From Raja brachyura (taxonomy: Eukaryota), in contig OY740801.1 in NCBI GenBank assembly GCA_963514005.1, forward strand, positions 27,156,001-27,220,000: a stretch of DNA of 64,000 nt, read 5' to 3'. Within the stretch, counting starts at the first letter, position 1. The number at the start of each line of letters is the position of its first letter. A program made the position numbers and the translations under genes. This document shows, in pieces, positions 27,873 to 29,747 of this stretch. Below the pieces are notes generated by a model that saw only the letters and a list, made by a program, of their open reading frames with translations, had not been told where the DNA came from and did not search any database.

Positions 27873-28513
27873 AAATCTAATCTATTAATTCAGATGACCA
27901 TGCAATTTATAATGGTCCCATCAAACTTTTCACTATTATAAAAATGAACATCACTTTAAAATTCAATCTGATATATTAATTTACTGGTGTGGGGGTGCAT
28001 TACTCCTTTTAAAGATATGCCAACTGATGCAATTTTGTTTACAATGCTAGACTGACAATTACAGTGCAAGTGGGAGAAACCAGGAGGGGGAGACTGGGGG
28101 GGGGAGGGCAAAATACTGGGCAGTGGGGAGACCGGGCGGGGGGGGGGGGAGACGACTGGATCGGCTTTCGGCAGCTGACGCACACAGAACCGCGCCTCAT
28201 CCGCGGCCAGGATCGAACCCGCGTCCCCAGCGTGGCAAACGCCGCCGAACTGCCACTGGACCGTCCCCGGTTCCCTCCCCCCCCACACTCGAGTGTCCCG
28301 TCCCTGCCAGGACCGACGGGACACCAGCTCCCAGGCCCTCCGCCAGCGCGGAGAAGCGCCAACCCCAGCTCATCTCCGCCTGTCCCGCCGGGCCAACCGA
28401 CAGCCCAGATTACTGATACCAGCGGCCGCAGGCCCACAGAATTCACAGGTCCACAACCAGCGCCAACTACAGCCCAACCCCACTCCAACTCCAGAGGAAC
28501 CCGCTCCCCGATG

Positions 28514-28893
28514 GGCCGCTACGGCGACAAGTGTCGATTCGCCCACGGCATGGCCGAGCTGCGCTCCCTCAGCCGCCACCCCAAGTACAAACCGTACCTT
28601 GCACACCACCGGCTTCTGCTGTACCCGCTGCCACTTCATCCACAACCCCGAGGAGGAGCGAGGGCCGCGGCAAGGGACTGGGGGAGAAGGTTATGCAAGT
28701 GGGGGGGAGAAGGTTGCTGCTGCCGCCAGCACCCCCAACTCCAGCGGGCGCCTGGCCATCCATGGCCAGTAGGAGCCTGTCCGCAGACTCGCTCTCCGAC
28801 CAGGGCAACTCCATCAGCAGCGGCTCCGAGTCGCCCGTCTTCGAGCAGGGCCGGTGGCTGCCCATCTTCAGCAGGATCTTGGTGTCGGACTGA
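28514..28893 (+). pseudogene. ZFP36/TIS11-family fragment (copy 2): partial tandem CCCH zinc fingers plus C-terminus
   Basis: RYGDKCRFAHGMAELRSLSRHPKYK / TLHTTGFC-TRCHFIHNPEEER / SLSADSLSDQGNSISSGSESPVFEQGRWLPIFSRILVSD-stop, across three frames with small deletions. Confidence 0.88.
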
Positions 28894-29747
28894 GGGGAGG
28901 GTGGTGGAGGTGGACAGCTGCCGGCCAACTCGGTGCGACAGGCAGAGCCGAGCTGGAGCCAGCGGCTGCAAGTTCAGGGCCGTCCCGCCAGCCAAGGGCC
29001 ACCCCGGACAGGAACGGGACACCGGGGAGGGCATTTTGTCTACCCAGGAGAATGTGCAAGCTCCACACAGATAGCACCAGAGGTCAGGATCAAACCCGCA
29101 TCTCTGGCACCATGAGTAAGCAGCTCTAGGAGGATCATATTTTAAGGCTTAGATTTAGTTTGAAGGACTCCACAGTTAACGTGCCCCAGCTTGGTGTGCA
29201 CTCATTTTCCCCCTCTATGTTCCTTATCCAACAATCTCTTGGGTCCATTTCACCTCCAGACTTTGTCACTTACTCCACACGGCTGCCAATTTAATAACCC
29301 CTTCACCTATATTTGCCAGGCTTTGTCCAGCCCTCCCAATTCATTTTCCAGCCTTCTCCCCGCCACAATCAAGTCTGAGGAAGGACCCCAACCCGAAACG
29401 TAACCTGTCCATTCCTTCCACAGATGCTGCCTGACACGCTGAGTTACTCCAGCACTTTGTTTCATTTTGGTAAACCAGCAGTTCATTGTGTTTCTCTCAC
29501 TGGGTGTGCAGTTGACAGCATGGGTGCAGCACCCCAAAGGTCAATTACTTGTGGGTTCCAATCAACATTGCCAATGGGTCAACCAGCCTTCACTCAGACA
29601 ACTGTCACCTTTCTTAAGTAAGGGGGGCAAAATCATACTCAATGCAACATGGCACACACAGGGAAATCATCCAGGGACCATTCCTACCCGAACTTTTCTT
29701 AACATTCAATTTGTATGTAATGCGTGTAGCTTTTTGTTTAATTTTAC

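Follow-up and report, generated by a model that had tools for sequence, protein, structure and literature searches.

How two broken pieces of a ZFP36-family gene came to lie in separate introns of one skate gene, each embedded in the same non-coding sequence, is the question raised by this locus. A sequence-only reading of the 64-kb window (the whole stretch of DNA analysed) had described the second piece as a cassette with decayed CCCH fingers that shared its non-coding flanks with a first copy, and had proposed a multicopy repeat that could yield antisense or small RNAs against the parent gene.

Setting and coding content of the two copies

Copy 1 occupies positions 6018–7037 and copy 2 positions 28121–29033, and a search of the whole 64-kb window with four ZFP36 relatives recovered these two loci only. 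They had been placed 22 kb apart, each antisense to PRKAR1B, which agrees with the exon positions. The first coding exon (29748–29915, Pfam RIIa E 1e-13) and further exons at 10322–10492 and 7553–7644 all lie on the minus strand; copy 2 occupies the intron directly behind that first exon, copy 1 lies two introns beyond it, and the ZFP36 sense of both copies runs on the plus strand, antisense to PRKAR1B. The identity of the host gene rests on the label given in the sequence-only reading, the RIIa domain and a DNAAF5-like neighbour, DNAAF5 being a neighbour of PRKAR1B. The DNAAF5-like first exon was observed at 57348–57929 (plus strand, Pfam TPR_DNAAF5 E 9e-50), facing the PKA regulatory-subunit gene head to head.

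The peptides quoted earlier for copy 2 were recovered from its plus strand, spread over three frames: RYGDKCRFAHGMAELRSLSRHPKYK at 28517–28591, TLHTTGFCCTRCHFIHNPEEER starting at 28596, and a block SLSDQ...RILVSD-stop, which ends at 28893. The finger remnants (28517–28667, plus strand) comprise only the last Cys and the His of finger 1, the linker, and finger 2 with its first Cys deleted and a frameshift present, and the first peptide matched solved finger domains of ZFP36L2 (E 8e-12) and TTP (E 3e-11). The C-terminal coding remnant (28697–28893, plus strand) runs to the stop codon and has a frameshift in common with copy 1. The coding remnant of copy 1 (6557–6834, plus strand) corresponds to residues 189–289 of protein P0001 and is altered by one frameshift, one deletion and an insertion of 12 bases. 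Its coding content exceeds what had been stated, 6560–6736 being 83% identical over 59 columns to P0001 residues 189–246. Copy 1 is devoid of any finger, copy 2 retains P0001 residues 118–175 with deletions plus the C-terminus, and residues 1–117 are absent from both. The full C-x8-C-x5-C-x3-H pattern occurs in neither copy, and the Pfam zf-CCCH score of 15.8 bits lies under the cut-off of 20.5. With the reading frame broken into three frames in copy 2 and two in copy 1, neither copy encodes a working protein.

A protein search with the C-terminal frame returned 29 matches among 179 candidates, and the top three, of 289–308 aa, came from a skate (P0001, Rhinoraja longicauda, 289 aa), a sawfish (P0002, Pristis pectinata) and a shark (P0003, Heptranchias perlo); the Rhinoraja protein is the nearest named protein to the coding remnants. 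The copies resemble these chondrichthyan ZFP36-family genes in their coding part, which is 81% identical at the C-terminus and 83% in the middle, and in skate-specific low-complexity stretches, but differ from them by the missing N-terminal residues, the want of an intact finger, the frameshifts and the inverted arms around the coding part. The NCBI names of the three nearest proteins conflict (L2-A-like, ZFP36-like and L1-like), and the P0001 finger domain scored 126 bits against the solved structure of ZFP36L2 and 110 against TTP, which is not decisive for the paralogue; the C-terminal piece had no relevant match among solved structures. The retained coding part presumably sits in a single exon of the parent. 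Significant homology in the fingers and the C-terminal motif identifies both copies as dead ZFP36-derived pseudogene fragments.

At codon positions fixed in the two close relatives P0001 and P0030, 15 of 287 bases were changed, six of them G-to-A, and one Gly-to-Glu codon is common to both copies. Immediately ahead of the MAGRS codons, each copy is one base short, with five bases in place of the parent's six. This shared one-base loss, together with the reciprocal retention of pieces, shows that both copies descend from one common, already broken pseudogene, and excludes either copy as the unaltered source of its counterpart.

Other repeats were observed in the window. A GC-rich long inverted repeat at 39925–40297/40403–40787 (275 of 352 columns identical, transitions 28 versus 17) has GCATGCGC motifs close to both outer ends and looks like a non-autonomous DNA transposon. 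An open frame of 521 aa at 51851–53416 (minus strand), presumably a CR1-type reverse transcriptase, has a 97% identical fragment at 2104–3112 (plus strand), and the two read as a young LINE family. An inverted pair at 35631–35848/36951–37179 surrounds a decayed transposase-like frame (36281–36848) that is taken to be Tc1-like, and a dispersed inverted pair at 14337–15745/45671–47109 (89% identical by BLAST) holds transposase-like frames and nested insertions. Close inverted LINE-like fragments at 61913–62442/62783–63300 are identical at 452 of 514 columns with symmetric mismatches, and a GC-rich tandem array at 55896–56500 has long open frames on both strands.

Inverted arms and candidate marks of insertion

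As the sequence-only reading had noticed, the upstream and downstream blocks of copy 2 recur in the same order in copy 1, with 107 of 131 columns identical on the left and 215 of 251 on the right (0 of 300 shuffles reach either score). What that reading did not contain is that the 'flanks' on the two sides match each other in inverted orientation. The stretch 28288–28404 of copy 2 is the reverse complement of its own 28917–29027, and 28183–28280 is the reverse complement of copy 1 6915–7004 (0 of 300 shuffles in each case). These inverted matches imply an ancestral layout of shared end, left arm of about 220 bases, spacer, coding fragment and right arm.

The shared end of copy 2 (28121–28182, minus strand), which would be the 3' end of a minus-strand RNA, is without a clear right-arm partner; no inverted partner was found for 28121–28165, the scores being reached by 112 and 290 of 300 shuffles. 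The adjoining left arm (28183–28405, minus strand) pairs with 28916–29031, is the inverted homologue of copy 1 6857–7004, and includes a SINE-derived stretch (28198–28232) that serves as an outgroup for polarising changes. The spacer (28406–28516) is T-poor like the arms and of unexplained origin; its inverted similarity to the coding part is weak (scores reached by 14 and 5 of 300 shuffles). The right arm (28916–29031, minus strand) is shorter than that of copy 1, lacks the distal portion and is 5'-truncated on the minus strand.

Alignment to copy 2 places the shared end and a deleted left-arm remnant of copy 1 at 6018–6187 (minus strand); inversion of this left remnant onto the coding region (7 of 300 shuffles) was dropped in favour of the colinear arm alignment. 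Most of the left arm of copy 1 is gone, and an unrelated 363-base stretch (6190–6552), probably a later insertion, replaces the inner left arm, the spacer and the fingers; copy 2 has no counterpart of it, and the rest of the window matches it over 28 bases only. The right arm (6857–7004, weakly to 7031, minus strand) contains 5 T in 148 bases on the plus strand. When the arms of copy 1 were compared with each other, 204 of 300 shuffles scored as well, and the stem is not maintained; a long inverted repeat on the transcribed strand is found in copy 2 only, the minus strand being the PRKAR1B sense strand. AT-rich sequence was also observed inside and beside copy 1 (6190–6552 and 7038–7370), with no counterpart in the window, and presumably resembles Kolobok-type element ends.

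Both copies carry candidate marks of insertion. Copy 1 is bounded by candidate target-site duplications at 5986–6002 and 7038–7054 (plus strand), which agree at 13 of 17 bases, a level reached by 18 of 3000 random windows, the windows having been picked after the ends were known. An A-rich tail on the minus strand (6002–6017, 14 of 16 bases) abuts the shared end, and at least 13 T in 16 bases occur at just 12 of 63,984 window positions. The reported absence of a poly-A tail holds for the plus strand, where no sense-strand poly(A) tail of a processed ZFP36 pseudogene was found, but not for the minus strand in view of this run. In copy 2, the candidate left duplication (28101–28110, plus strand), likewise picked with the ends known, matches 29024–29033 at 10 of 10 bases (31 of 3000 random windows); this repeat is G-rich, its right member overlaps arm sequence, and the minus strand of copy 2 has no A-tail. 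Just outside copy 2, a G-rich stretch (28062–28110) repeats the end motif of the element (22 bases, 86%), as either target-site homology or a tandem tail. The minus-strand 3' end is common to both copies (6018 and 28121) and the 5' end varies. A shared 3' end, 5' truncation, an A-tail and a target-site repeat are marks of target-primed reverse transcription, and retro-insertion of a minus-strand RNA by this route appears moderately supported.

One-sided mismatches and the direction of change

The arms differ from each other in a one-sided manner. Over 188 aligned columns, which combine one within-copy and one between-copy alignment, A in the left arm faced G in the reverse complement of the right arm at 22 columns and C faced T at 24, the opposite transitions amounting to 5 and the transversions to 13; identity-only scoring gave 47 versus 5 in 193 columns. 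The 46 common mismatches form G·U pairs on the minus strand only, antisense to ZFP36, and A·C on the plus strand. Compared with 20 shuffles per strand, folding gave z −3.25 for the minus and −0.98 for the plus strand, and the arm duplex reached −170.6 kcal/mol versus a shuffled mean of −133.8 (sd 5.6).

All nine control inverted pairs are symmetric (p 0.14–1). A scan of 19 inverted pairs in the window found one other skewed at p<0.01 and one at p=0.029, both of which beat shuffles and have small gap-poor cores (7 versus 2 and 2 versus 1). The first of these two, an old inverted similarity at 41648–42040/42281–42657 (56% identical, transitions skewed 63 versus 27, with its gap-poor core spanning 47 columns), probably represents the diverged ends of a repeat family. 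Since the plus strand of both arms has few T, much of the asymmetry follows from composition: with chance alignments to shuffled arms, 78% of transitions already belong to the common classes, and what exceeds composition has p=0.022 (0.009 by formula). The T-poverty of the arms is itself what needs explaining, and none of 283 comparable GC-rich windows is as low in T as the right arm.

The direction of change could be polarised with an outgroup. About 35 arm bases are similar to an interspersed repeat that is common in the window (13 matches, six over the relevant part), which is taken here to be a tRNA-derived SINE. In this test of eight columns and six SINE copies, the SINE majority is A or T at seven of the eight wobble columns, with one column opposite. 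A profile of the six copies scored the left arm at 9.9 bits, the right arm at −3.3 and the A:U reading at 21.1, leaving the G:C reading unmatched, and none of 1000 random C-to-T sets of equal size reached 21.1 bits (best 20.8). This polarity indicates that A:U pairs turned into G·U pairs, a change from A to G on the minus strand of each arm, at 22 of 28 sites in one and 24 of 42 in the other (46/70 in total).

The neighbours of these sites differ as well. A G:C pair is the 5' neighbour of 20 of 21 unchanged A:U pairs versus 25 of 44 changed ones (p=0.0014 pooled), an effect seen in the distal (p=0.018) and the proximal half (p=0.049), absent on the 3' side (p=0.42) and absent from all four control repeats. 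In two alternative arm pairings, which contain just 7–8 unchanged sites, the 5' effect is absent (copy 1 left with copy 2 right, p=1.0, 7 unchanged sites) or non-significant (copy 2 left with copy 1 right, proximal, p=0.15). Sorted by 5' neighbour, and in a model-dependent manner, change affected 7 of 7 sites after U, 13 of 14 after A, 13 of 22 after C and 13 of 27 after G, an order that follows the ADAR1 preference U=A>C>G (PMC11120146).

The changes are concentrated in the duplex, with 46/70 in the arms versus 1/55 in the coding loop, where 53 of 55 required T are kept and one has become C; the T-poor spacer remains unexplained. Methyl-CpG decay was rejected as a source of the wobble pairs because CpG context is not enriched (19/46 versus 42/100). 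An A-to-G bias tied to the transcription of PRKAR1B, on its sense strand, was rejected given the spared loop and the symmetry of two other inverted pairs in PRKAR1B (11 versus 14 and 9 versus 5), and GC-biased fixation on the reasoning that it would be strand-symmetric. Of 12 testable columns, 10 have the wobble state in common between the copies, which suggests that the putative edits are older than the separation of the two loci. Within the arms, one copy differs from the other in a balanced way (T/C 2 versus G/A 2; 7 versus 8), and with no extra T/C differences nothing points to repeated rounds of editing.

Proposed history, alternatives and significance

These features are probably best explained by an antisense hairpin RNA that was hyper-edited by ADAR, reverse-transcribed and inserted, and then decayed neutrally. 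In a skate gene of the ZFP36 family, the 3' part would have gained an inverted copy of its own downstream region on the 5' side, giving an arm–coding fragment–arm order as from a fold-back duplication; this geometry is seen in the copies, and such an inverted arm would result if DNA or cDNA folded back while being synthesised. Antisense transcription would then have allowed the arms to pair into a stem of about 200 bp, in which, judging from the mutation pattern, ADAR would have turned about two thirds of the adenosines to inosine and spared the loop. The edited RNA may have been reverse-transcribed, with inosine read as G, and the product may have entered the germline. Copy 1 would retain the A-tail and a likely target-site repeat, and copy 2 the same 3' end with a 5' truncation; the copies have since decayed separately.

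The same arms might instead be the T-poor repeats of a non-autonomous mobile element, a Pack-type DNA transposon or an inverted-repeat retroelement that captured a ZFP36 piece with no editing. Composition accounts for 78% of the skew, two dispersed copies bear many internal deletions, and the window holds other long inverted-repeat elements, all of which suit such an element. However, the arms are not terminal, as the unpartnered shared end at 28121–28165 indicates; no terminal inverted repeats of the Pack type were found, and the true far end of copy 2 may be lost. The T-depletion is extreme (0/283) and limited to arms and spacer, the SINE polarity and the neighbour effect would stay unexplained, and the A-tail of copy 1 fits an RNA route, so that a mobile element without editing is considered quite unlikely. 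A DNA-transposon end at the right flank of copy 1 was rejected separately (13 matches versus 18 expected by chance). Distinctly improbable, too, is a hairpin RNA locus, functional in the past or at present, in which selection keeps the G·U pairs and Dicer products target the parent mRNA: the long minus-strand stem on the strand transcribed by PRKAR1B, the duplex energy given above and the loop antisense to the parent coding sequence would agree with it, but selection for G·U should freely use C-to-T at CpG, which is not enriched, seven of the eight polarised sites derive from A:U, and the 5' neighbour effect is not predicted. The left arm of copy 1, moreover, is mostly lost (204/300 shuffles), and deletions are many in both copies. 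C-to-U deamination of a single-stranded minus strand by an AID/APOBEC-like enzyme would produce the same G·U pattern, with the same two mismatch classes, and G-to-A is the commonest loop change (6/109); yet the G:C reading that it implies loses the SINE match entirely, the ancestral stem would need about 86% G+C (146/170 pairs), and the neighbour context under this model is not significant (p 0.08 and 0.32). AID/APOBEC-like enzymes act on unpaired DNA, and the loop should accordingly be hit above the stem. Deamination is held to be hardly credible.

A further alternative bears on the origin of the copies only and is compatible with the ADAR editing favoured here, namely a single insertion that was afterwards duplicated locally, at the DNA level, inside PRKAR1B and belongs to no wider family. 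Just two loci occur in 64 kb, in the same orientation and 22 kb apart, and three protein searches returned no further chimeras. In searches with copy-specific frames, two matches among 13 candidates were both full-length genes, 0 of 200 candidates fitted in another search, and none was found in a representative protein library, an insensitive search in which a parent-like protein was also missed; these negatives are weak evidence on copy number either way. Against local duplication, the outer flanks show no relationship (their scores are reached by 47 and 13 of 200 shuffles), the exons between the copies are not duplicated, each copy has its own candidate target-site repeat, and the supporting protein searches are insensitive. 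We hold it to be a doubtful though serious account. On the unrelated flanks, a tandem or segmental duplication was rejected, and given the different introns as well, the view already taken in the sequence-only reading, that the copies are dispersed and do not form a tandem, stands.

Under the edited-hairpin history, both copies are read as non-coding fossils. The earlier idea of antisense or small RNAs gains a structural basis from the minus-strand hairpin, and it is possible that the stem of copy 2 would form in PRKAR1B pre-mRNA with antisense ZFP36 in the loop and give rise to such RNA. The lost stem of copy 1 and the loop, which decays like neutral DNA, speak against function; Rfam gave no match at the gathering score in 64 kb, and in 28000–29150 only four weak matches far under the cut-off. 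A wider proposal, that a skate-lineage retro-mobile family with an ADAR-hyperedited hairpin RNA and an antisense ZFP36 exon wrote its inosine edits into the germline and spread to many loci, and that intact intronic copies remain a source of antisense or small RNA directed at the parent mRNA-decay gene, is judged unlikely.

Several known systems can be compared, each described here from the available part of its source. In avian retroviruses (Rous-associated virus, avian leukosis virus), A-to-G changes in an inverted repeat affect nearly 50% of adenosines (PMC12925331); this is the closest precedent, but the present case involves an antisense cellular gene fragment, about 66% of sites (46/70) and fixation in an animal genome as two old copies. 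APOBEC-edited vertebrate retrotransposons also show clustered one-way changes made on an intermediate that was then integrated (PMC2873906, PMC4866542), although theirs are G-to-A by DNA deamination and those described here are A-to-G on the RNA strand and confined to the stem. Drosophila hpRNAs and mouse oocyte pseudogene endo-siRNA loci tie an inverted repeat to a gene fragment (PMC13228617, PMC5398296), and copy 2 could form a comparable long stem; unlike those loci, one copy here is without a stem. The Teratorn herpesvirus-transposon of fish carries a ZFP36-like gene (PMC5601938), but is a 180-kb viral element, in contrast to a dead piece of less than 1.1 kb that most resembles a gene of the host lineage itself. 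Capture by a Teratorn-like virus was rejected, the nearest proteins being host-lineage genes, after the ORF list was inspected by eye and seven frames were scanned with Pfam. In the literature searched by title and the start of the abstract, with most subscription papers outside, no description of a germline-fixed ADAR-edited cellular retrocopy was found, and under the same limit no match for ZFP36, transposon and cartilaginous fish.

If the editing interpretation is wrong, an ordinary duplicated pseudogene fragment remains. ADAR hyper-editing is normally seen only in RNA, and a germline-fixed fossil of RNA editing would be rare. A simple screen for such fossils, applicable to any genome, would look for inverted repeats whose G·U mismatches are one-sided, whose loops are spared and which bear marks of retro-insertion. 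If the interpretation is true, inosine-rich cellular RNA can be reverse-transcribed and inherited, and the neighbour preference of ADAR would be preserved here from an old cartilaginous-fish lineage.
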